From Alphaproteobacteria bacterium (GTDB lineage Bacteria; Pseudomonadota; Alphaproteobacteria; Micavibrionales; Micavibrionaceae), in assembly GCA_049653045.1 (NCBI GenBank), contig JBASFN010000140.1:1-55203 (forward strand): DNA of 55,203 nucleotides, written 5' to 3'. Both the position numbers and the translations under genes were made by a program. The notes below the pieces were generated by a model. That model worked only from the letters and a program-made list of their open reading frames with translations. It did not search any database and was not told the origin of the DNA. Shown in pieces: positions 8,704 to 26,326 of the stretch (position 1 is its first letter; every line of letters starts with the position of its first letter).

Positions 8704-11343
8704 ATGATTACAAAGACAGATCAAACCAGAGCCCTTAGTTTGAGCACAGTGGCATTCACCCTGTGCTTTGCTGTGTGGACGATATTTTCAATTATCGGTG
8801 TCCAGATACAACAGGATATGGGGCTGACAGACACACAATTCAGTCTGTTGATCGGGACGCCGATCCTGACTGGCTCTTTGGTAAGACTCTTTTTTGGTAT
8901 CTGGGCCGATCAGTATGGGGGGCGCCCGATTTTTATGGCGGTTATGCTGTCATCCGCTTTTTTCACATGGTGCTTGACCTATGCGGATACGTACGAAATG
9001 TTGCTGCTGACGGCATTGGGTGTGGGCGTCGCCGGGGGAAGTTTCGTGGTCGGCATTGCCTATCTCTCAAAATGGTACGGTAAAGAACATCAGGGGACTG
9101 CGCTTGGTGTCTACGGAATGGGCAATATTGGTGCGGCGGTCACCAAATTTATAGCGCCCTTTGTCATGGTTTCCTATGGCTGGCATATGGTTGCGCAAGT
9201 ATGGGCAATATCATTAGTTATCATCGCGCTGCTATTCTGGTTCTTTACCAAGGACGAGCCTCAAATCCAGCAACAAAGGGCTGCAAAGACCGCCCCGAAA
9301 TCGATGTGGGAGTCCCTTAAACCTCTCAAGAAACTGCAAGTCTGGCGTTTCTCTCTTTACTACTTTTTTGTGTTTGGCGGCTTCGTTGCATTGGCACTAT
9401 GGCTGCCGCGCTATTATGTTGGCGTTTATGATCTGGATATTAAATCGGCAGGGATGCTGGCTGCTTCTTTTTCTATAGCGGCCTCATTGTTCCGCGCCGT
9501 AGGCGGGTACTTGTCTGATAAATATGGCGCGCGCTCGGTCATGTATTGGACGTTTCTTGTGAGTGCTATTTGCTGTTTTCTGTTGGCCTATCCGCAAACC
9601 GATTATGTCGTTCATGGAATTGATGGAAATATAGAATTCAGTTTTGGCTGGGGCTTTATCCCGTTCACAGTGATTGTGTTTGTGCTTGGTTTCTTTATGT
9701 CCTTGGGCAAGGCTGCAATCTATAAGCATATTCCTGTCTATTACCCGAATGATGTTGGATCGGTTGCGGGTATTGTTGGCCTGATTGGCGGCCTTGGCGG
9801 TTTTTTTCTCCCTCTTAGCTTTGGTCTGATGAATGACTATCTCAACGTCTGGACAAGTTGCTTCATGTTGCTTTTCGTACTGGTTACGATTGCGTTTTTA
9901 TGGATGCACGTTTCTATCCGCTTGATGGAGCGGGAACGCTACCCAGAACTGACAAAACCTGCCTTTTTCACCGAGATGGAGAAGAAACATGTTTTGAAAG
10001 TCTGGAAGCCCGAAGAGGACAGTTTCTGGCGCTCAGAAGGGCAAAAGATTGCCCGCCGTAATCTCTGGCTTTCCGTTCCGGCACTTTTCCTCGCTTTTGC
10101 CTTATGGATGGTATGGAGCGTTGTTGTGGTAAATCTCCCCAGAGTGGGTTTTGATTTTACGACGGAGCAGCTTTTCTGGCTTACGGCTTTGCCCGGACTG
10201 TCCGGCGCAACCTTGCGCATCTTCTATGCCTTCATGGTTCCTGTTTTTGGTGGGCGTCGTTGGACGGCGCTCAGTACCGGATCGCTTCTGATACCGGCCT
10301 TTGGTATCGGGATGGCGGTGCAGGATCCCTCAACGCCTTATTCGGTGTTTCTGATTTTGGCTTTGCTCTGTGGTTTCGGCGGTGGAAACTTCGCCTCCAG
10401 CATGGCCAATATTGCGTATTTTTTCCCTAAAAAAGAAAAAGGCAATGCTCTGGCTTTGAACGCCGGGCTCGGCAATCTGGGTGTCAGCGCTGTTCAGTTC
10501 CTTGTGCCGTTGGTGATTACGGTTGGTCTTTTTGGCGCTGTTGGCGGCGCTCCGCAACTGGCGGATGGAACAAGTCTTTGGATTCAAAATGCCGCCTATA
10601 TATGGATCCCGTTTATCGCCGTTTCGGCAATCCTGTCATGGTTTTATATGAATGATATTGCAGATGCCAAAGCCTCTTTGTCCAGCCAGATGGCGATCTT
10701 CCAGCGGAAACATAACTGGATTATGTGTGTTCTTTATATCGGAACATTCGGCTCTTTTATTGGGTTTTCCGCGGGGTTTCCGTTGCTGGCGAAGTCACAA
10801 TTTCCGGAGGTGAACTCTCTCCAGCTTGCCTTTATAGGCCCGCTTCTTGGTGCACTGTCCCGTGCGGGGAGTGGATGGATTTCAGATAAATTCGGCGGCG
10901 GACGTGTTACGCTTTGGGTGTTTGTAGCCATGATTGTTGGGGCGCTTGGTGTGTATTACTTCCTGACCATCAAGGATCATCCCATGGCATTCTACGGATT
11001 TTTCGGCATGTTCCTCGCCCTGTTCGTTACGACGGGCGTAGGGAATGCCTCTACTTTCCAGATGATCCCCTCCATTTTCTGGCAGGACAGAAAAAAAGCC
11101 CTGAAAGGCCAGCCGGAGGAAGACATTCGCAAGACCGCAGAAAGAGAATCTGCAGCCGTTATTGGGTTTAGCTCCGCTATCGGTGCTTTTGGGGCGTTCT
11201 TTATCCCCAAAAGCTACGGCACGTCGATTTCTCTGACGGGTGCGCCGGATGCGGCCTTGCTTGTTTTTGCGGGGTTCTATGCATTGTGCCTGTATTTAAC
11301 CTGGTATTTCTACATCAGAAAGAATGCGGAAATAAAATGCTGA
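8704..11343 (+). CDS. narK: fused NarK1-NarK2 nitrate/nitrite MFS transporter
   Basis: 879 aa, made of two tandem 12-TM MFS NNP-family halves. It lies directly upstream of narG. Confidence 0.9.
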   Translation: MITKTDQTRALSLSTVAFTLCFAVWTIFSIIGVQIQQDMGLTDTQFSLLIGTPILTGSLVRLFFGIWADQYGGRPIFMAVMLSSAFFTWCLTYADTYEMLLLTALGVGVAGGSFVVGIAYLSKWYGKEHQGTALGVYGMGNIGAAVTKFIAPFVMVSYGWHMVAQVWAISLVIIALLFWFFTKDEPQIQQQRAAKTAPKSMWESLKPLKKLQVWRFSLYYFFVFGGFVALALWLPRYYVGVYDLDIKSAGMLAASFSIAASLFRAVGGYLSDKYGARSVMYWTFLVSAICCFLLAYPQTDYVVHGIDGNIEFSFGWGFIPFTVIVFVLGFFMSLGKAAIYKHIPVYYPNDVGSVAGIVGLIGGLGGFFLPLSFGLMNDYLNVWTSCFMLLFVLVTIAFLWMHVSIRLMERERYPELTKPAFFTEMEKKHVLKVWKPEEDSFWRSEGQKIARRNLWLSVPALFLAFALWMVWSVVVVNLPRVGFDFTTEQLFWLTALPGLSGATLRIFYAFMVPVFGGRRWTALSTGSLLIPAFGIGMAVQDPSTPYSVFLILALLCGFGGGNFASSMANIAYFFPKKEKGNALALNAGLGNLGVSAVQFLVPLVITVGLFGAVGGAPQLADGTSLWIQNAAYIWIPFIAVSAILSWFYMNDIADAKASLSSQMAIFQRKHNWIMCVLYIGTFGSFIGFSAGFPLLAKSQFPEVNSLQLAFIGPLLGALSRAGSGWISDKFGGGRVTLWVFVAMIVGALGVYYFLTIKDHPMAFYGFFGMFLALFVTTGVGNASTFQMIPSIFWQDRKKALKGQPEEDIRKTAERESAAVIGFSSAIGAFGAFFIPKSYGTSISLTGAPDAALLVFAGFYALCLYLTWYFYIRKNAEIKC

Positions 11344-14400: not shown

Positions 14401-15163
14401 AGAGGAGAAAATCCGCTTTCGCGATATTCAGGCGCAGCCGCGCAAAATTATCAGCTCCCCCACATGGAGCGGCCTTGAATCAGAGCATGTTTCCTACACG
14501 GCAAACTACACAAACGTGCACGAATTTATTCCTTGGCGTACGCTGACAGGCCGCCAGCAGCTTTATCAGGATCACCCTTGGATGGTTGATTTTGGCGAAG
14601 CGCTGGTTTCCTATCGCCCGCCAATCAATACGCGCACTGTCCAGAACATGCTGGACAAGCACGGGGAGGAATCACCGACGATCCTGCTTAATTTTATTAC
14701 GCCGCACCAGAAATGGGGGATTCACTCCACCTATACGGATAATCTGCACATGCTGACATTGTCACGCGGCGGGCCGATTGTCTGGGTCAGTGAAGTCGAT
14801 GCCAATAAAATAGGCATTAAAGACAATGACTGGTTGGAAGTTTTCAATACGAACGGCGCAATCGTCGCGCGGGCGGTTGTATCCCAGCGTGTCAATGAAG
14901 GCATGATGCTGATGTATCACGCGCAGGAAAAACTGGTGCATACACCGGGCAGTAAAATTACCAATGCGCGCGGCGGCATTCACAATTCCGTCACACGGGC
15001 AACGATCAAACCAACACATATGATCGGCGCTTATGCCCAGCTTTCTTACGGATTTAACTATTACGGAACCGTTGGCTCCAACCGCGATGAGTTCGTTATT
15101 GTCCGTAAAATGGACAAGGTGGACTGGATGGATGAACCGGCTCAAGTGGAGGCAGCAGAATAA
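11435..15163 (+). CDS. narG: respiratory nitrate reductase alpha subunit NarG
   Basis: 1242 aa. The N-terminal FS0 motif HGVNCTGSCSWKIY is present, the protein has Mo-bisPGD enzyme architecture, and an AAGGAG Shine-Dalgarno precedes the start. Confidence 0.97.
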   Translation: MSYFIDRISYFAQNREKFSNGHGVTTEENRAWEKAYRDRWAHDKIVRSTHGVNCTGSCSWKIYVKNGLITWETQQTDYPRTRPDLPNHEPRGCSRGASYSWYIYSANRLKYPMVRKRLLELWRRTKKQVGGDPVEAWKTIQADPVLRQSYQKVRGQGGFVRAGWDEANEIVAAANIYTIKEHGPDRVIGFSPIPAMSMISYAAGARYLSLIGGVCMSFYDWYCDLPPASPQTWGEQTDVPESADWYNSGFIIMWGSNVPQTRTPDAHFMTEARYKGTQIVTITPDYSEASKFGDIWLNPRQGTDAALGMAMGHVILKEFHIDNPSEYFDDYCRAYTDMPFLVKLEKQGDRFVPGRMVRASDFKGNLDEDNNPEWKTVCFDEETGNITVPTGSIGFRWGEEGKWNIVPTDSKTGENIRPRKTLLGDHDDVLKVGFPYFGGQTHETGYFEPSAGEDVLDRNIPVKYLDLNGEKVAVACVFDLLCANYGIAREGLGGDNVASGYEDNIPYTPKWQESITGVPVEKVIQVAREFANNAHITKGKSMIIIGAAMNHWYHMDMNYRAAINMLAFCGCIGQSGGGWSHYVGQEKLRPQTGWTPLAFALDWVRPPRQQNSTSFFYAHTDQWRYETLDVDEVLSPLADKEKWKGSLIDCNIRAERMGWLPSAPQLEENPIDLVKQAENKKVDPVDYVVDRLKSGDLRMSCEDPDNPKNWPRNMFVWRSNILGSSGKGHEYFLKHFLGTQHGVQGKDLGDEGPGKCSEVVWHDEAPEGKLDLVVTLDFRMSTTCVYSDIVLPTASWYEKNDLNTSDMHPFIHPLSKAIDPVWQSKSDWEIYKGFAKKFSELCEGHLGVEKEIVLNPIQHDTPGELAQPDVKEWRKGECDLIPGKTAPSMKVVERDYPATFDRFTSLGPLLEKLGNGGKGIGWNTDHEVDFLKKLNGERDGRAKIDTDIDACEMVLSLAPETNGEVAVKAWSALSKITGRDHTHLALPKQEEKIRFRDIQAQPRKIISSPTWSGLESEHVSYTANYTNVHEFIPWRTLTGRQQLYQDHPWMVDFGEALVSYRPPINTRTVQNMLDKHGEESPTILLNFITPHQKWGIHSTYTDNLHMLTLSRGGPIVWVSEVDANKIGIKDNDWLEVFNTNGAIVARAVVSQRVNEGMMLMYHAQEKLVHTPGSKITNARGGIHNSVTRATIKPTHMIGAYAQLSYGFNYYGTVGSNRDEFVIVRKMDKVDWMDEPAQVEAAE

Positions 15164-16791
15164 TGAAAATACGCGCACAAATTGGTATGGTGCTCAATCT
15201 CGATAAATGTATCGGCTGTCATACCTGCTCCGTCACTTGCAAGAATGTCTGGACATCCCGCGAAGGGGTTGAATATGCCTGGTTTAACAATGTTGAAACC
15301 AAGCCGGGCGTTGGATATCCCAAAGATTGGGAAAATCAGGAAAAATGGAAAGGTGGCTGGGAACTCCATAAAAACGGGAAAATCCATCCCAAGCAAGGAA
15401 GCCGTTGGCGCATTCTGGCCAATATTTTCGGCAACCCGAGCATGCCGGAAATCGATGATTATTACGAACCGTTCACGTTTGATTACGATCATCTGCAAAA
15501 AGCACCAGAGATGAAAACCATGCCAACAGCGCGGCCTCGTTCACTGATCACAGGGCAACGCATGGAAAAAATCGAATGGGGGCCGAACTGGGAAGAAATT
15601 TTAGGGACGGAATTCGAACATCGCCGCAAGGATTACAATTTCAAAGACATTGAAGAAGAAATGTATGGAGAGTTTGAAAATACATTCATGATGTATCTGC
15701 CTCGCTTGTGTGAGCATTGTATTAATCCAACGTGCGTTGCTTCTTGTCCGTCCGGCTCCATCTATAAACGTGAAGAAGATGGCGTTGTCCTCATTGATCA
15801 GGACAAATGCCGTGGCTGGCGCATGTGCGTGTCGGGCTGTCCTTACAAGAAAATTTATTACAACTGGAAAACTGGCAAGGCCGAGAAATGCACGCTTTGT
15901 TATCCACGTCTTGAAAATGGCGAGCCAACTGTCTGTTCTGAAACCTGTGTCGGGCGTATTCGTTACCTTGGGGTCATTCTTTATGACGCTGACCGTATTG
16001 AAGAGGCGGCGAGCGTTCCCAATGAAGAAGATTTATATGAGGCGCAGCTTGGCATTTTTCTGAACCCACACGATCCGGAAATCATCGCGGAAGCGCGTAA
16101 ACAAGGTATTCCTGAGAACTGGATTGAGGGTGCACAAAACTCTCCTATTTATAAAATGGTAATGGACTGGAAAGTGGCGTTCCCGCTTCACCCGGAATAT
16201 CGCACCTTGCCGATGGTCTGGTATATTCCGCCGCTGTCTCCGGTTCAATCTGCGGCGGCGCAGGGAAAAATCGCAACCAAAGACGGTATTATGCCGGATC
16301 TGGATGATATGCGCATTCCGGTTAAATATCTGGCCAATATGCTGACGGCCGGCAAAGTAGAGCCTGTGCGTCTTGGTCTTAAACGTATGATGGCGATGCG
16401 CCATTATATGCGCGGCAAGATGATTGAAGGCAAGGATAACTCCGGCATTTTGGAAGAAGTCGGTCTGACGCCGGAATTGGTCGAAGACATGTATAAAATC
16501 ATGGCGATTGCCAATTATGAAGATCGTTACGTCATCCCGACAAGTCACCGTGAAGAAACGTTGGATGCCTTTGGCGAGAGCGGCGGATGCGGCTTCAGCT
16601 TCGGCAATGGCTGTTCTGACCACAGCCACAGCGCGATTGATTTGTTTGAAAATCCTAAACAGTCACGTGGCCAGTCCGGCAGCACAAAAAGCAATCGTGT
16701 GAATACGATTTTCGAACGTGACAAGTATGAAGACATTGGGAAAAAGCATACCGGATGTGGCGGCGGTTCTTGCGGCGGCGGTTGTGGTTGA
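15163..16791 (+). CDS. narH: respiratory nitrate reductase beta subunit NarH (with Cys/Gly C-terminal extension)
   Basis: Four ferredoxin-type Cys clusters are present (CIGCHTCSVTC, CEHCINPTCVASC, CRGWRMCVSGC, CTLCYPR...CSETC). The start overlaps the narG stop. The protein carries an extra tail ending GCGGGSCGGGCG. Confidence 0.97.
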   Translation: MKIRAQIGMVLNLDKCIGCHTCSVTCKNVWTSREGVEYAWFNNVETKPGVGYPKDWENQEKWKGGWELHKNGKIHPKQGSRWRILANIFGNPSMPEIDDYYEPFTFDYDHLQKAPEMKTMPTARPRSLITGQRMEKIEWGPNWEEILGTEFEHRRKDYNFKDIEEEMYGEFENTFMMYLPRLCEHCINPTCVASCPSGSIYKREEDGVVLIDQDKCRGWRMCVSGCPYKKIYYNWKTGKAEKCTLCYPRLENGEPTVCSETCVGRIRYLGVILYDADRIEEAASVPNEEDLYEAQLGIFLNPHDPEIIAEARKQGIPENWIEGAQNSPIYKMVMDWKVAFPLHPEYRTLPMVWYIPPLSPVQSAAAQGKIATKDGIMPDLDDMRIPVKYLANMLTAGKVEPVRLGLKRMMAMRHYMRGKMIEGKDNSGILEEVGLTPELVEDMYKIMAIANYEDRYVIPTSHREETLDAFGESGGCGFSFGNGCSDHSHSAIDLFENPKQSRGQSGSTKSNRVNTIFERDKYEDIGKKHTGCGGGSCGGGCG

Positions 16792-16815
16792 TCAATTAAG
16801 AAAGGACGAAAGATC

Positions 16816-16977
16816 ATGAATATCTTTAAAAAATCGAATTCTGAAAACAAAAAACAAGACACAAAAAAAGAAAGTGTCCCTGACAATAAGAAACAACAGG
16901 ACACACAAAAGCCTGACCCGCATGCTAATGGCGGATGTTGCGGCTCTTGCGGGGGACAACAAGGAAAAGGCTCATGA
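16816..16977 (+). CDS. 53-aa Lys-rich micro-protein with C-terminal GGCCGSCGG motif
   Basis: This ORF is hand-translated and is below the track cutoff. An AAAGGA Shine-Dalgarno lies 9 nt upstream. Its stop overlaps the narJ ATG (ATGA), and it fills an otherwise unexplained 182-nt narH-narJ gap. Confidence 0.5.
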   Translation: MNIFKKSNSENKKQDTKKESVPDNKKQQDTQKPDPHANGGCCGSCGGQQGKGS

Positions 16978-17681
16978 GAACGCTTAAAATACTGGGATTT
17001 CTACTCACCTATCCTTCCGAGTCTCATAAAGAGGTTCTGGATGAGTGCTATAATTTCCTAAAAAATGAAAAGTGGGTTTCTGAAAAAGCACTCCGTTCTC
17101 TTGAATTGTTTCTCGAAGAGATGCGTGCCACCGATCTTCTTGATTTACAGGAAGCTTACGTTGCTTTATTTGACCGTACGCCATCCTTGTCGCTGCATTT
17201 ATTTGAGCATATTCACGGTGACTCACGCGAACGTGGGCAGGCTTTGGTTGATTTGACCAAAGTCTATGAAGAAGCCGGTTTATTGATTAATACCGATGAA
17301 ACCCCTGACTATTTGCCGCTATTTCTGGAATATGTATCAACCCTGCCGCCGGAAGATACCAAAGAAAATTTAGGCAGTGTGGTTAATATTCTTTCCGCCA
17401 TGGGAGAACGCCTGAAAAACCGAGAATCACAGTATGCCGCCGTGTTTGAAACACTGGTAGAAACAGCAGCGCGTAAGCCTGATCCGAAGGCGGTAGAGAT
17501 TGCGCTTCAGAAAGCTTCGGGGGCAGCATACGACCTTGAAAAACTTGACGCGGAATGGGAAGAGCAATTCGCGTTTGAGAATACAGAACAAACAACCGGC
17601 CAGAATAGCGGCTGTCCGAAAGCCGAAGATATGCTGGCGCGTATCAATGGTTATAAGGAAGAGGAAAGGGTTAAAAAATGA
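16974..17681 (+). CDS. narJ: nitrate reductase molybdenum cofactor assembly chaperone NarJ
   Basis: MRTLKILGFLLTYPSE parallels the E. coli NarJ N-terminus (MIELVIVSRLLEYPD). It lies between narH and narI. The ATG at 16974 is preferred over the ATG at 16935. Confidence 0.9.
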   Translation: MRTLKILGFLLTYPSESHKEVLDECYNFLKNEKWVSEKALRSLELFLEEMRATDLLDLQEAYVALFDRTPSLSLHLFEHIHGDSRERGQALVDLTKVYEEAGLLINTDETPDYLPLFLEYVSTLPPEDTKENLGSVVNILSAMGERLKNRESQYAAVFETLVETAARKPDPKAVEIALQKASGAAYDLEKLDAEWEEQFAFENTEQTTGQNSGCPKAEDMLARINGYKEEERVKK

Positions 17682-19144: not shown

Positions 19145-19180
19145 TTTTACAAAATATAAAGAATCGATTATCCTCTCAGT

Positions 19181-19408
19181 ATGAAATTATTATGCGACTT
19201 ATGTGATAGACAAACTAATTTTGGAGGTGGCCAATACGATGGTAAACCTTCAGCTTTGGATAACACTTTATTCTTTTGCAATAATTGTAGGCAAATACAT
19301 TGGGATGGTATTGGTCCATCACATGAGAATAAATTTGTTAGTCTGTTAGAACAGAAAAATATTCCCCTAACACAGCGTAATGAAAAAGGCTGGTATCCTC
19401 TTCAATAG
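19181..19408 (+). CDS. hypothetical small protein with CxxC...CxxC zinc-ribbon-like motif
   Basis: 75-aa ORF with CDLCDR...CNNC. It is more AT-rich than its neighbours and has no clear Shine-Dalgarno. Confidence 0.35.
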   Translation: MKLLCDLCDRQTNFGGGQYDGKPSALDNTLFFCNNCRQIHWDGIGPSHENKFVSLLEQKNIPLTQRNEKGWYPLQ

Positions 19409-19414
19409 CATCAT

Positions 19415-19428
19415 TTGATTCAGATCAA
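19415..19428. promoter_or_regulatory. FNR/CRP-type box TTGATTCAGATCAA upstream of hemN
   Basis: Perfect palindrome 33 nt before the hemN ATG. A TATGAT -10-like hexamer lies at 19450-19455. Confidence 0.75.
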
Positions 19429-19461: not shown

Positions 19462-20796
19462 ATGAATAAAGATGATATCAAGGCCTTGCTTGCCAAATAT
19501 GATTATCCTGTGCCGCGCTATACAAGTTTTCCAACGGCGGTGCAGTTTAAATCTGTTGAGGATACCGGAATTTATTTTAAATGTCTGAACTCCCTCACGT
19601 CGAATGAGCCTGTTTCGCTTTACGTTCATATTCCTTTTTGCCATAGCCTTTGTCACTATTGTGGCTGTCACACCAAAATTGTGCATAGCTATAGCCCGAT
19701 TTCTTCATATATTGATACATTGATCAACGAAATAGAATTGGCGGGCAGAAATTTAAAAGTTGCCCAGAGCGTATCACGCATTCATTTTGGCGGCGGCTCA
19801 CCTAATTACGCAAAGACGGAAGATATAAAACGCATATTGAGCACTCTGGGGCGTTATTTTGATCTCTCCTCCGCACAGATTGATATGGAGTGCGATCCAC
19901 GGCTTTTGAACGATGCTAAAATTTCTGATTATGCCGCGCTTGGCCTATCACGTATAAGCCTTGGTATTCAGGATTTTGACGCGGGCGTACAAAAAGCCAT
20001 AAACCGCATTCAGCCCTTTGATGTGGTCAAAAAGCAAATTGAGGCGCTGCACTGTAACGGCATTCATAATATTAATTTTGATTTGATTATCGGCCTTCCC
20101 GAACAAACATTGGAAACCGTCAATGAAACACTGGATAAAGTCTTGGAGCTTCAGCCCGCGCGCGTTGCCGTATTCCCCTATGCCCATGTTCCATGGATGA
20201 AGAAGCACCAGAAACTGCTCGAGAAATATGAAATGCCGGAAACATCTTTGCGTTATGAGATGGCTAAGCTCACCGAAACCCGCTTAAAAAATGCGGGATA
20301 TGAAACGATTGGTATCGATCATTTCGCGCGCGCTGATGATCCTCTGGCCCGCGCTTCGAAAAATGGGAACATGCGCCGTAATTTTCAAGGCTATACGGAT
20401 GATCCTGCCCGCACCATACTGGGATTTGGTTTGTCGTCAATCAGCCAGTTTGAAGAGGCTTATACCCAGAATACCACGGATGCGCCTTTATACAGGAAAA
20501 CTGTCGATAATGGGGAGGTGCCGCTGGCAAGAGTACTGACGTTGACGCAGGATGATCAGGATAGAAGAAAGCTTATCGAGGAATTGATGTGTAATTCTAC
20601 TGTTAATTTTGAAGATTATAAGAGTATCCCTGTGCCACGATCAGCTCTTGCATTGCTGGAGCAAGACGGCTTGATTGAAATAACCGGTTCACAGCTGCAA
20701 GTTACGCAAAGCGGCAAAACATTTGTGCGTGTTATAGCCTCCCTCTTCGATCCTTATTTTAAAAAAGAAAGTAACCGCCATGCTAAAGCTGTTTGA
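19462..20796 (+). CDS. hemN: oxygen-independent coproporphyrinogen III oxidase HemN (radical SAM)
   Basis: Contains PRYTSFPTA, the radical-SAM motif CHSLCHYCGC and GGGSPN. 444 aa. Confidence 0.9.
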   Translation: MNKDDIKALLAKYDYPVPRYTSFPTAVQFKSVEDTGIYFKCLNSLTSNEPVSLYVHIPFCHSLCHYCGCHTKIVHSYSPISSYIDTLINEIELAGRNLKVAQSVSRIHFGGGSPNYAKTEDIKRILSTLGRYFDLSSAQIDMECDPRLLNDAKISDYAALGLSRISLGIQDFDAGVQKAINRIQPFDVVKKQIEALHCNGIHNINFDLIIGLPEQTLETVNETLDKVLELQPARVAVFPYAHVPWMKKHQKLLEKYEMPETSLRYEMAKLTETRLKNAGYETIGIDHFARADDPLARASKNGNMRRNFQGYTDDPARTILGFGLSSISQFEEAYTQNTTDAPLYRKTVDNGEVPLARVLTLTQDDQDRRKLIEELMCNSTVNFEDYKSIPVPRSALALLEQDGLIEITGSQLQVTQSGKTFVRVIASLFDPYFKKESNRHAKAV

Positions 20797-23434: not shown

Positions 23435-23557
23435 GCCATGTTCATTTGCACATGGCCGCTCTGAAGCCTTTATGTCCTAAGTCTTTATTATAAGGATATG
23501 GCGCAAAGGCCGGGGTTATGTGTGGAAACGCCATGATCTCCCGTGTTTGGAAAGGAG
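23435..23557 (+). ncRNA. candidate molybdenum-cofactor (Moco) riboswitch in moaA leader
   Basis: The long structured leader contains AAAGGCC...GGAAAC...CUCCC...GGAAAGGAG, elements I associate with the Moco RNA motif. The stems GCCUUU/AAAGGC, GGCG/CGCC and CUCC/GGAG can form, and the last one can sequester the Shine-Dalgarno. Not verified with a covariance model. Confidence 0.4.
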
Positions 23558-23566
23558 TCTATTGAT

Positions 23567-24556
23567 ATGATAACCGAGCCGCATCTCGCGGATAATTTTG
23601 GTCGCCGGTTTCCTTATTTGCGCTTGTCCGTAACGGATGTGTGCAATTTCAGCTGTTCCTATTGTTTGCCCGATGGATATAAAAAAACAGGATGTGAGAG
23701 CTTTCTGGATCAAGAAGAAATTATCAGGCTGGTAAAAGCATTCGCCGCGCTTGGTGTTTGGAAAATCAGACTGACAGGAGGGGAGCCAACCGTGCGCCCT
23801 GATTTTATCCAAATTGCACAGCGCGTTGCTTCAATACAAGGTATTAAAAAACTGGCTTTTACGACCAATGGCTATAAATTGCCTGAGCGGGCGCAAAGCT
23901 ATTACGATGCGGGACTTCGGGCGATTAATATCAGTATAGACTCTCTGAATGCAGAGAAGTTTAAAGCCATCACAAAACATGACCGCTTGGAAGAGATCTT
24001 GGACGGGTTAGATGCCTGCCACGATGCAGGGTTCGAATCCGTCAAAATCAACACCGTCCTGCTCAAGGGATATAATGATAACGAGCTTGATGATTTTATC
24101 GCTTTTGTTCAGGACAAGCCTGTTTCCTTGCGCTTTATTGAGCTTATGCGCACGGGCGATAATCAGGATTATTTTAGCGAGCATCATTTGCCCGGCACCG
24201 CCGTTACAGAAAGATTGCTGGCGCGTGGATGGCATTTAAAACCTCGTGAAGAAGGCGCAGGACCAGCCCAAGAATTTGCACATAAAGGCAGCAAAGGCAC
24301 AATTGGTTTAATCGCCCCCTATTCAAAAGATTTTTGTAAAAGCTGTAACCGTCTGCGCATGTCTGCCAAGGGTGCGCTCCACCTTTGTCTTTTCGGTGAA
24401 CGCGGGTATCCCCTACGGCATCTTCTACAATCAGACGACAGTTCAGAAGAACTGCAAGAAAAAATAATGGCGTTGATGAATTTTAAGAAATCAGCGCATT
24501 TTTTACATGATAATAACAGTGGCGTTCGCGACCATTTAGCAAGTATTGGAGGATAA
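23567..24556 (+). CDS. moaA: GTP 3',8-cyclase MoaA (radical SAM)
   Basis: Contains YLRLSVTDVCNFSCSYC and the C-terminal CxxCNRLR motif. An AAGGAG Shine-Dalgarno lies 9 nt before the ATG at 23567; the track start at 23543 is a GTG. Confidence 0.95.
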   Translation: MITEPHLADNFGRRFPYLRLSVTDVCNFSCSYCLPDGYKKTGCESFLDQEEIIRLVKAFAALGVWKIRLTGGEPTVRPDFIQIAQRVASIQGIKKLAFTTNGYKLPERAQSYYDAGLRAINISIDSLNAEKFKAITKHDRLEEILDGLDACHDAGFESVKINTVLLKGYNDNELDDFIAFVQDKPVSLRFIELMRTGDNQDYFSEHHLPGTAVTERLLARGWHLKPREEGAGPAQEFAHKGSKGTIGLIAPYSKDFCKSCNRLRMSAKGALHLCLFGERGYPLRHLLQSDDSSEELQEKIMALMNFKKSAHFLHDNNSGVRDHLASIGG

Positions 24557-24560
24557 AACC

Positions 24561-25589
24561 ATGTCGAAAACAGAAGAAGTTATTGCCTTTCCCACGGCGG
24601 CACAGCCCAATTTCAAAATGATTGACGTAGGGCGCAAAAGACCAACACGCCGCCGCGCCGTAGCCTGTGGCACTATCCATATGAATGCAGAAGCATTTGA
24701 GGCGATCAAAAATGGTAAGCTGCCTAAAGGCAATGTTTTGGCACTGGCCGAAGCGGCAGGTATTACGGGTGCTAAGAAAACACCGGACCTCATCCCTATG
24801 TGCCACACATTGCCGCTGGATCAGGTCACCATCCATTGCGCCATGAATGAGCAGGATCACAGCATTACAGTCTATGCGCAGGCCGTTGCTTTTGCGAAAA
24901 CGGGTGTCGAGATGGAGGCCTTGGCGGGCGCGAATGCTGCACTTTTAACGATCTGGGATTTAACAAAAGGTACTGATCCAAATTTAAGCATGGAGGGCAT
25001 ACGCCTTTTGATTAAGACAGGCGGAAAAAGCGGTGTCTGGATCAATCCGAACGGCATACCTGACTGGCTGGCTGAGCAATTGCCCGATGAGAAAACGCTT
25101 GTCGGTAAATCCGCCGCCATTTTAGTGATGAGCGACCGCGCATCCAAAGGCGAGTATGAAGACAAATCCGGTCCCGTTTTAAAAGAACTTTTGAGCGCTG
25201 CAGGGGCCGATATCAAATGCTCTACGGTTATTCCTGATGAAGCGGATAAAATTGCCGCCGCAATTAAAGACATTTGCGCGCAGCATACGCCGGATATTTT
25301 GATCGCCTCTGGTGGCACAGGGCCAGGGCCGCGTGATTTAACTCCCGATGTTTTGGAAGAAGTTTGCGAGCGCATGCTGGATGGGTTGGGCGATGTGCTA
25401 CGAACAGAGAGTCTCCACTTTACGGACACCGCATGGCTGTCCCGCATGACGGCGGGCATGGTTGGAGCTACACTTGTCATCGCTTTCCCCGGTTCTCCTA
25501 AAGCAGTTAAGGAATGCTGGGATATTATTGCTCCTTTTATCGGTGATGCGCTGAACAAGATTAAAAAGCAAGGATATGATGAAGCATGA
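24561..25589 (+). CDS. moaC: bifunctional MoaC (cyclic pyranopterin monophosphate synthase) / MogA-MoaB-like protein
   Basis: The N-terminal half has the MoaC motifs KGNVLALAEAAGITGAKKT.DLIPMCH and TGVEMEAL. The C-terminal half has the MogA/MoaB motifs SDRASKGEYEDKSG and SGGTGPGPRDLTP. A GGAGGA Shine-Dalgarno precedes the ATG at 24561. Confidence 0.9.
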   Translation: MSKTEEVIAFPTAAQPNFKMIDVGRKRPTRRRAVACGTIHMNAEAFEAIKNGKLPKGNVLALAEAAGITGAKKTPDLIPMCHTLPLDQVTIHCAMNEQDHSITVYAQAVAFAKTGVEMEALAGANAALLTIWDLTKGTDPNLSMEGIRLLIKTGGKSGVWINPNGIPDWLAEQLPDEKTLVGKSAAILVMSDRASKGEYEDKSGPVLKELLSAAGADIKCSTVIPDEADKIAAAIKDICAQHTPDILIASGGTGPGPRDLTPDVLEEVCERMLDGLGDVLRTESLHFTDTAWLSRMTAGMVGATLVIAFPGSPKAVKECWDIIAPFIGDALNKIKKQGYDEA

Positions 25590-25840: not shown

Positions 25841-26326
25841 ATGAGCATTCAAGTTTTTGTCAGTGCTGATCCTTTAAGCCTTGAAACGGCGATGCAAAGC
25901 GTTGTCGATCCGGCGCATGGGGCCATTGATACGTTTATCGGCACAGTGCGCAATATGCATGAGGGTAAAAGCGTAACGGGCATCACATACGATGTGCATG
26001 AAGCCTTGGCAGAAAAAGTCTTTCATGAAATTTGTGAGGAAGCACAGGGATTATGGCCGGATACGCGCTATTACGCCTCGCATTATCAGGGCGCTCTGGA
26101 TGTTAGCGGGATCAGCATTATCATTGCTGTGAGTTCTCCTCACCGCGCCGAGAGTTTTGAAGCGTGCCGTTACGTCATCGAAGAAATTAAAAAACGCGCT
26201 CCCGTCTGGAAAAAAGAGCATTATGTGGATGGTATGAGCGACTGGTTGCCGGGACATTCCCTGTCAGAGGAAGCGGAGCACTCCATGACCTGTTGCGGCC
26301 ATTGTCAGGAGGATGCGCATGGATGA
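25841..26326 (+). CDS. moaE: molybdopterin synthase catalytic subunit MoaE (with CCGHC tail)
   Basis: Contains the GAIDTFIGTVRN and PVWKKEHY motifs. It has an atypical C-terminal extension, ...MTCCGHCQEDAHG. Confidence 0.9.
   Translation: MSIQVFVSADPLSLETAMQSVVDPAHGAIDTFIGTVRNMHEGKSVTGITYDVHEALAEKVFHEICEEAQGLWPDTRYYASHYQGALDVSGISIIIAVSSPHRAESFEACRYVIEEIKKRAPVWKKEHYVDGMSDWLPGHSLSEEAEHSMTCCGHCQEDAHG

Follow-up and report, generated by a model that had tools for sequence, protein, structure and literature searches.

A conserved cysteine-tipped micro-protein encoded between narH and narJ in Micavibrionaceae, a candidate member of a portable module of N-oxide respiration

The respiratory nitrate reductase operon in a 55,203-nucleotide (nt) stretch of DNA from an alphaproteobacterium of the Micavibrionaceae (assembly GCA_049653045.1, contig JBASFN010000140.1; the whole stretch is referred to below as the window) contains, between narH and narJ, a small open reading frame (ORF) whose 53-amino-acid product ends in a Cys/Gly-rich tip. 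The presented results indicate that this micro-ORF is almost certainly a real, translated gene of a narK-GH-x-JI operon. Related tips end NarH and MoaE of the same window, and the same motif terminates other proteins encoded near genes of N-oxide metabolism; the tip is therefore likely to be a portable module tied to N-oxide respiration. A bolder reading goes further. It proposes that [DN]PHxxG-x-CCGxCGG and the disordered tether that carries it form a portable accessory module of N-oxide respiration that has so far escaped notice, either fused to NarH, MoaE, DUF2249 and other small domains or free as micro-proteins encoded beside narJ, qNor and nosZ-like genes. As a swinging thiolate arm, it would deliver, hold or rescue metal or iron-nitrosyl species at enzymes exposed to nitric oxide (NO). 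We assign this reading a probability of roughly 0.35.

The first-pass annotation of this DNA had described a 182-nt gap between the narH stop (16791) and the narJ ATG (16974), a 53-codon ORF within it, an AAAGGA Shine-Dalgarno sequence 9 nt before this ORF, and an ATGA junction in which the TGA of the ORF overlaps the narJ ATG. All of these features are present (Table 1), and a gap of this length is indeed unusual, as narH and narJ overlap by 4 nt in E. coli K-12. The spacer between the narH stop codon and the micro-ORF amounts to 24 nt and includes the AAAGGA. A mechanical ORF listing extends narJ to 248 amino acids, into the micro-ORF, by using an in-frame ATG at 16935, 39 nt upstream of the narJ start; MRTLKILG is conserved, which favours 16974 as the actual start. 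There was no Rfam match at E≤1 in 16500-17200, no terminator in the narH-narJ gap, and the sole promoter-like match in the gap was at background level and on the minus strand.

The micro-ORF is conserved at several levels. A word-indexed protein search returned 22 homologues of 51-81 amino acids with 58-98% identity, only one of which carries a name (a 'hypothetical protein' of a metagenome-assembled genome, MAG), and among 1.84 billion cluster representatives a profile search picked out no more than 18 proteins or clusters of this family, all of 41-75 amino acids. All 12 of the 12 contigs examined have the micro-ORF between narJ and a narH encoding 540-542 amino acids, with identical downstream synteny. 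Moreover, every relative with a long narH-narJ gap has it (about 25 distinct loci), the start region aagaaaggaN(8-10)ATG is kept in all close relatives, and conservation extends down to 52% NarJ identity. In the comparison of 10 distinct 53-codon orthologues (Nei-Gojobori), the proportions of synonymous (pS) and nonsynonymous (pN) differences were 0.45 and 0.10, and the ratio of nonsynonymous to synonymous change (dN/dS) was 0.15. By region, this ratio was 0.05 for codons 1-6, 0.18 for the linker and 0.04 for codons 33-50, and the Cys (TGC/TGT) and Gly (GGN) codons change synonymously among orthologues. Because dN/dS is as low as 0.15 overall and 0.04 over the tip, the micro-ORF can be regarded as translated and under purifying selection. 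The suggestion that it is a genuine operon gene was thus borne out, its frame, Cys motif, Shine-Dalgarno sequence and narJ junction being conserved among relatives. The exact form of that junction holds in part: the ATGA overlap occurs in the window clade and in loci L025, L027 and L029, whereas in L020, L022-L024 and L042 the stop lies 8-21 nt before narJ.

Translation of the micro-ORF would begin from its own Shine-Dalgarno sequence, and its stop codon would be coupled to the narJ start. Such coupling raises the question of whether the ORF is only a leader that sets NarJ expression, the peptide itself being unimportant. The stop codon, which overlaps the narJ ATG or lies shortly upstream of it depending on the clade, and the codons following CGG, which overlap the narJ ribosome-binding region, agree with a device of this kind. 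It is nevertheless a very unlikely explanation, since the tip and the N-terminus are under selection for their amino acids (dN/dS 0.04-0.05) while synonymous change is free, and since the same peptide tip is found on unrelated proteins. In addition, the ORF is not needed for coupling, because relatives without it place narJ 3-50 nt after narH.

The 25-member family alignment gives the consensus M[ND][IL][LF]KxLGLK, a polar linker of variable length, [DN]PHxxGGCCG[SGH]CGG and 0-15 further residues. In the window micro-protein CCGSCGG occupies residues 41-47, and the linker is variable and rich in Lys, Gln and Glu. A His residue is nearly always present, 5-6 residues upstream of CCGxCGG or, in one clade, just downstream of it (CGGHGH). 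The tip thus offers three Cys, two of them in a CxxCG knuckle of the rubredoxin type, along with one His. The AlphaFold model computed with the alignment has a predicted local distance difference test score (pLDDT) of 58 and no secondary structure, and the micro-protein is predicted to be intrinsically disordered. The N-terminal motif M[ND][IL][LF]KxLGLK is missing from the members associated with qNor, nosZ-like and hemerythrin genes that are described below. Mimicry of the NarJ-binding N-terminus of NarG (MSYFIDRISYFAQ) by this motif (MNIFKK/MDILKSLGLK) was considered and rejected, the resemblance being too weak.

Comparison with described families was largely negative. At E≤10, neither the micro-protein nor the tails of NarH and MoaE matched a Pfam or NCBIfam family, the known metal-binding domains (HMA, SEC-C, metallothionein, rubredoxin and the HdrB CCG domain) included; the exception is TIGR04101, which distant family members matched below its threshold. 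The window micro-protein did not match PF10006 (DUF2249), and no entry was matched in sequence and profile searches of the PDB. Literature searches gave nothing relevant on a cysteine-rich extension of NarH, a gene between narH and narJ, metal binding by MoaE, the nitrate reductase of Micavibrio, or CCGSCS. The earlier statement that no described narGHJI component is like the micro-protein stands as far as Pfam families, solved structures and papers are concerned, but a look-alike does exist for distant members, below cutoff, in TIGR04101 (the 'CCGSCS motif protein' of NCBIfam; 59 positions, function unknown, cutoff 28 bits). TIGR04101 is likewise polar, has a length of about 59 amino acids and carries a C-terminal CCGSC-type motif, all of which the 53-residue window protein resembles in size and motif, and positions 23-58 of its 59 align to the C-terminal part of distant family members. 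These alignments score 14.5-17.8 bits, below the cutoff, and the window protein itself has no match at E≤1, which does not allow it to be placed in that family. The tip studied here is, moreover, CCGSCGG preceded by PH, as opposed to CCGSCS.

NarH of the window also ends in a Cys/Gly stretch (...KKHTGCGGGSCGGGCG). Standard NarH proteins end near position 492 of TIGR01660, or residue 512 of the E. coli protein, whereas the window NarH adds a clade-specific linker and the Cys tip; alignment with E. coli NarH (512 amino acids, PDB) covers only residues 1-496 of the 542 in the window protein. The extension of roughly 30 residues beyond E. coli NarH, described earlier, is thereby confirmed by both alignments. 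To describe its distribution, GTDB species representatives were scanned with the NarJ alignment, which gave 41 loci, almost all of them in MAGs labelled Micavibrio or Alphaproteobacteria; the window can accordingly be assigned to a Micavibrio-like alphaproteobacterium. The NarH tail is found in nearly all of these loci, with 3-6 Cys of variable spacing, and is absent or degenerate only in L030, L035, L047 and L053. GCGGGSCGCK is among its variants, and some tails contain His runs, e.g. YAHDHARIHEHKSGGGCSSGGCGSGSSGCGSH... and GGCGSHSHDHGG.... One Micavibrio contig (L102, 1299-2993) encodes a 564-amino-acid NarH with a His/Cys-rich tail ending ...YAHDHARIHEHKSGGGCSSGGCGSGSSGCGSHMGTKNGGGCG and has no micro-ORF; MoaE of its nar-linked moa operon ends CCGKCGAHD, and within a few kb of the moa genes there is a heavy-metal efflux pair of the RND/CusB type. 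WEEQFAF…GCPKAEDMLARM is common to all NarJ proteins of the clade (L013-L053), which have an invariant Cys close to their C-terminus. This Cys (in GCPKAEDML) was examined as a partner of the tail and set aside as non-discriminating, since it occurs in all loci, including those without the NarH tail.

The micro-ORF and the tails might be no more than neutral by-products of GGC/TGC-rich repeat DNA. The low complexity of the sequences, the differences in NarH tail length and Cys count between clades, and the lineages without ORF or tails would fit such an origin. The selection data largely refute it and leave it scarcely credible: the NarH tip has pN=0 against pS=0.30 and is found clade-wide, which also answers the concern that the tail is a neutral low-complexity extension, and the micro-protein tip has a dN/dS of 0.04. 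Furthermore, the micro-ORF persists to distant NarJ relatives, as noted above, and the motif recurs at the C-termini of unrelated proteins in related gene contexts.

The third Cys-rich terminus of the window belongs to MoaE (...HSMTCCGHCQEDAHG). A six-frame scan of the whole 55-kb window found at least three Cys in the last 25 residues only in NarH, the micro-ORF product and MoaE among real genes, and CCxxC inside real genes only in the latter two. The MoaE ending, previously described as atypical, proved to be a conserved subfamily feature whose core is shared with the micro-protein tip: 101 of the 120 best MoaE homologues (61-98% identity) end WLPGHSL-x(8-10)-CCGxC. CCGxC is often followed by CGGxxH[GA] or GGxxHG at the end of the protein, as in CCGKCGGARHG, and many homologues end CCGKCGGxxHG; these endings closely parallel those of micro-proteins terminating in CCGSCGGGRH or CCGSCGGQGHK. 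In the AlphaFold model the MoaE core has a pLDDT above 90, and residues 140-161 are below 50; here too the prediction is of a tip on a disordered tether.

Table 1. Features of the micro-ORF, its neighbours and the related Cys-rich termini in the window.
Feature	Position	Strand	Remarks
narH (nitrate reductase beta subunit, 542 aa)	15163..16791	+	TIGR01660, 960 bits over residues 1-490
NarH C-terminal linker (NPKQSRGQSGSTKSNRVNTIFERDKYEDIGKKHT)	16651..16752	+	dN/dS 0.017, 10 orthologues; clade-wide; last part lies past the end of E. coli NarH
NarH Cys/Gly tip GCGGGSCGGGCG (last 12 codons)	16753..16788	+	pN=0, pS=0.30, 10 orthologues
Shine-Dalgarno AAAGGA of micro-ORF	16801..16806	+	9 nt before ATG at 16816
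micro-ORF, 53 aa, Cys-tipped micro-protein, predicted disordered	16816..16977	+	encodes MNIFKKSNSENKKQDTKKESVPDNKKQQDTQKPDPHANGGCCGSCGGQQGKGS
N-terminal motif MNIFKK (family form M[ND][IL][LF]KxLGLK)	16816..16833	+	dN/dS 0.05; specific to nar-type members
Tip motif DPHANGGCCGSCGG (residues 34-47)	16915..16956	+	CCGxCGG invariant in 25 diverse members; dN/dS 0.04
narJ (chaperone for molybdenum cofactor insertion)	16974..17681	+	TIGR00684 and NF011628 align from residue 1; MRTLKILG conserved
moaE (molybdopterin synthase large subunit), C-terminal tail predicted disordered	25841..26326	+	PF02391
MoaE tail motif CCGHC (residues 151-155)	26291..26305	+	CCGxC near C-terminus in 101/120 best homologues

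The tip is not confined to the nar and molybdenum cofactor (Moco) setting in which it was first noticed: DUF2249 proteins encoded upstream of qNor terminate in it too, as do small proteins encoded near nosZ-like and hemerythrin-PAS genes. A metagenome scan with the degenerate DNA pattern for P-H-x2-G-x-C-C-G-x-C-G-G matched 42 stretches. Six were nar-type micro-proteins, all between NarH and NarJ, and about 15 were DUF2249 (PF10006) proteins ending ...PHxxGxCCGxCGG. The others comprised 85-amino-acid proteins of unknown family (three), YgaP-like transmembrane proteins (two), a micro-protein after a hemerythrin-PAS_10 gene, a nosZ-like type, an orphan type and a tip micro-protein without DUF2249 directly upstream of qNor (one each), three unclassified stretches and about nine apparent chance matches. 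A separate metagenome scan with the micro-protein alignment produced 600 pattern matches, none of which was confirmed by tblastn, probably owing to low-complexity masking.

The DUF2249 proteins are the largest of these groups. Tip-bearing relatives upstream of qNor match PF10006 at 99.8 bits, and the tblastn context map places such a gene immediately upstream of qNor in at least eight loci, with Rrf2-family and NnrS genes nearby. Megaplasmids of Ralstonia solanacearum carry, between nirK and the NO reductase gene (norB/qNor), a gene whose product is annotated as 'DUF2249 domain-containing protein' and ends ...STGQCCGGCGGA; it occupies 93931-94218 of CP047137.1 (5001-5288 of locus L101), in a genetically tractable host. 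Clusters of nar, nir and nor genes are known to include DUF2249 genes, and a sensor role has been proposed for their products, with no mention of a Cys tip (PMC6282519; PMC11218638). The DUF2249 proteins DrpA and DrpB are tied to nitrate respiration in Thermus (PMC6282519), and DUF2249 proteins are induced in haloarchaeal denitrification (PMC11218638). The subfamily beside qNor thus bears the exact tip, whereas the window micro-protein is without the DUF2249 domain.

Weak profile matches led to two further small proteins. The first, of 41 amino acids (L055, 3001-3126), ends EDPHENGSCCGSCGG and is encoded beside crp/fnr and nnrS. An FNR-like box (TTGACcacaATCAT, 2934-2947) lies about 54 nt upstream of this gene, which is divergent from a nosZ-like gene scoring below threshold (357 bits, cutoff 625). 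In the same locus, an adjoining 391-amino-acid unknown protein has a weak (20.6-bit) NifL-like match at its N-terminus. The second is a 54-amino-acid ORF ending DPHAEGSCCGGCGG, in an unrelated context. The 85-amino-acid tip protein (MKTEILDIAIPINAETAERAG…KPHASGSCCGSCGG) of L076, L092 and L093 has no Pfam or NCBIfam match; an HMA-like fold was considered for it on the basis of appearance and rejected, as Pfam gives no support. In L076 this protein adjoins a VWA-domain protein.

How the micro-ORF and the NarH tail are related can be approached through their distribution. In a neighbour-joining tree of NarJ, the micro-ORF is present in three subclades, interspersed with lineages that are without it and have a narH-narJ gap of 3-50 nt. 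A CC pair in NarH was found in none of about 20 loci that have the micro-ORF, as against 7 of about 26 loci that do not. Among the latter, the NarH terminus in some cases repeats the motif of the micro-protein itself: NarH ends ...SSCGGGCCGSCG in L026, L032 and L034, ...GCGGCCGGQCG in L045, L049 and L052, and ...GGCGGGCCSGGGCG in L028. This pattern would fit duplication, fission or fusion of one module, but it is suggestive only, resting as it does on about three independent lineages and a neighbour-joining tree of a short protein. The DNA similarity of the two stretches in the window, from which a local duplication had been proposed, is not decisive, since it spans about eight Gly/Cys/Ser codons that have little freedom. 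A better hint of shared origin is that NarH in loci without the micro-ORF can end ...CGGGCCGSCG.

In the proposed mechanism, the tip would be a flexible set of thiolate and imidazole ligands for a metal ion or for a small labile Fe-S or iron species, which it would bind on its own or paired with another tip, for instance the tail of NarH. Tethered to NarH or MoaE, or free as the micro-protein, it would act as an accessory when the metal centres of N-oxide respiratory enzymes, which are sensitive to NO and O2, are assembled or repaired. For the nitrate reductase (Nar), the micro-protein would work beside NarJ, its co-translated partner, the nar-specific N-terminal motif (MNIFKK / MxILKxLGLK) would serve as a docking element or 'address', and the micro-protein itself would probably be the NarH-tail module supplied in trans through duplication or fission. 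The tip has a ligand-like composition (three Cys with a His, the CxxCG knuckle, and NarH variants rich in His) and is predicted to be disordered; the chance that it binds a metal or cluster is put at about even. That such a ligand set acts as an accessory in metal-centre assembly or repair is held at slightly below even odds, and a role in Nar maturation or protection together with NarJ is a tentative proposal. Metal binding, ligand identity, the partner proteins and the evolutionary direction are all points that we infer.

Known systems offer partial parallels. The C-terminal tail of SecA consists of a flexible linker and a Cys3His domain that binds Zn or Fe and mediates partner binding. The likeness lies in a disordered tether ending in a tiny C-terminal Cys3/His site; the SecA motif is CxCx8C[HC], it serves another cellular process, and SEC-C of Pfam is not matched here at E≤10. 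HypB has a high-affinity Ni site, CxxCGC, at its N-terminus, and SlyD, UreE and HypB have His/Cys-rich tails. These proteins likewise place a short Gly/Cys motif on the flexible terminus of a metallocentre-assembly factor, and NarH tails such as GCGGGSCGCK or the His-rich forms recall them, but they have no sequence homology to the tip. C-G-S-C-G-G corresponds to the CxxCG knuckle of rubredoxin and zinc ribbons, and by analogy with the Rad50 zinc hook a tetrahedral site would be complete only if another tip joined the one knuckle. Unlike these proteins, the tip is one knuckle with an adjacent extra Cys, has no folded domain and is predicted to be disordered. Plant HMA4 binds Zn with nanomolar affinity through di-Cys motifs located in a flexible extension of its C-terminus (PMC6255694); that protein is, however, a eukaryotic P-type ATPase with many repeated CC pairs and an unrelated sequence.

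Several observations weigh against the proposed mechanism. No curated metal-binding family matches the tip, even at E≤10, and an Fe-S cluster would be unusual in having three of its Cys within five residues and two of these side by side. The associated enzymes have no common metal (Fe-S, Mo and haem in Nar; haem and FeB in qNor; Cu in NosZ; none in MoaE), and because they share no single metal a specific metallochaperone role is hard to generalise. L035, L047 and L053 have neither the micro-ORF nor the NarH tail, and one contig (L021) pairs the NarH tail with a tail-less MoaE (P0082); the parts are therefore dispensable and not strictly coupled. NarH tails also differ greatly in the number and spacing of their Cys, and a loose 'thiol sponge' would account for this no less well than a defined site.

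The main rival draws on some of the same facts. According to it, the tip is a metal-free, reactive-thiol device that traps NO or nitrosonium by S-nitrosation, holds dinitrosyl-iron species or works as a disulfide redox switch, protecting or gating enzymes that make or meet NO and O2. The contexts in which the tip occurs are all N-oxide or NO modules (nar, qNor with an Rrf2 regulator, NnrS, a nosZ-like gene, hemerythrin-PAS), the partner enzymes are without a common metal, and the variable Cys number of NarH tails would suit a sacrificial thiol buffer. Damage to Fe-S proteins by NO during denitrification is, moreover, documented in R. solanacearum (PMC9045102). We consider this rival unlikely, if deserving of attention, because a defined ligand set, more than generic thiols, is suggested by the invariant CCGxCGG with a His close by, by the CxxCG knuckle and by NarH tails rich in His, and because MoaE has no obvious link to NO.

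A precursor of a ribosomally synthesised and post-translationally modified peptide (RiPP) was also considered, in which the Gly/Cys/Ser core would be modified and released as in microcin B17 or MNIO substrates. The core does resemble thiazole/oxazole substrates, and a noise-level match to an MNIO RiPP peptide model was obtained (E=3.5). This explanation is most improbable, given that no cyclodehydratase, YcaO, MNIO or transporter gene is present in any locus examined, that the neighbours are narGHJI, ppiC, a canonical hemN, nnrS, crp and moa genes, and that the same tip is carried by enzymes (NarH, MoaE) and DUF2249 domains. A radical-SAM peptide maturase was rejected as well, the only radical-SAM neighbours being the canonical HemN (TIGR00538, 426 bits) and MoaA.

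The operon of the window reads fused narK-narK, narG, narH, micro-ORF, narJ, narI, a PpiC-type peptidyl-prolyl isomerase (PPIase) gene and canonical hemN; further along are nnrS, then crp/fnr and nnrU on the opposite strand, and moaA, a moaC-moaB fusion, moaD, moaE and mobA. The NarK-NarK protein is a two-domain nitrate/nitrite transporter fusion of 879 amino acids (8704-11343), and the MoaC-MoaB/MogA-type fusion has 347 amino acids (24546-25589). A Moco (molybdenum/tungsten) riboswitch (RF01055, 48.6 bits, 23444-23573) lies upstream of moaA, so that the cofactor regulates the moa operon to which the gene for the Cys-tailed MoaE belongs. A perfect FNR/Dnr-type box (TTGATtcagATCAA, 19415-19428) is located about 35 nt upstream of the hemN start at 19462 and is also present in L001. 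Relative to that 96%-related MAG locus, the window contains a 264-nt AT-rich insertion (19145-19408) directly after the PPIase stop, with TAG at both bounds. It encodes a 75-amino-acid ORF (19181-19408), MKLLCDLCDRQ...FFCNNCRQIHWDG..., with a CxxC...CxxC arrangement and no Pfam or NCBIfam match.

In the textbook view of the narGHJI operon, its product matures with the help of NarJ and the general Moco and Fe-S machinery alone. The conserved extra gene, along with the matching tips of NarH and MoaE, points to an unrecognised assembly or protection step in at least one bacterial order. The tip was missed by annotation because it is short and of low complexity, and it offers a starting point for understanding both a subfamily of DUF2249 and the orphan family TIGR04101. 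Its presence beside qNor and nosZ-like genes, including those of the tractable plant pathogen R. solanacearum, suggests a general module of denitrification and NO stress. If the portable-module reading is true, the Nar enzyme of this clade would possess one more small subunit or maturation factor, provided in trans.

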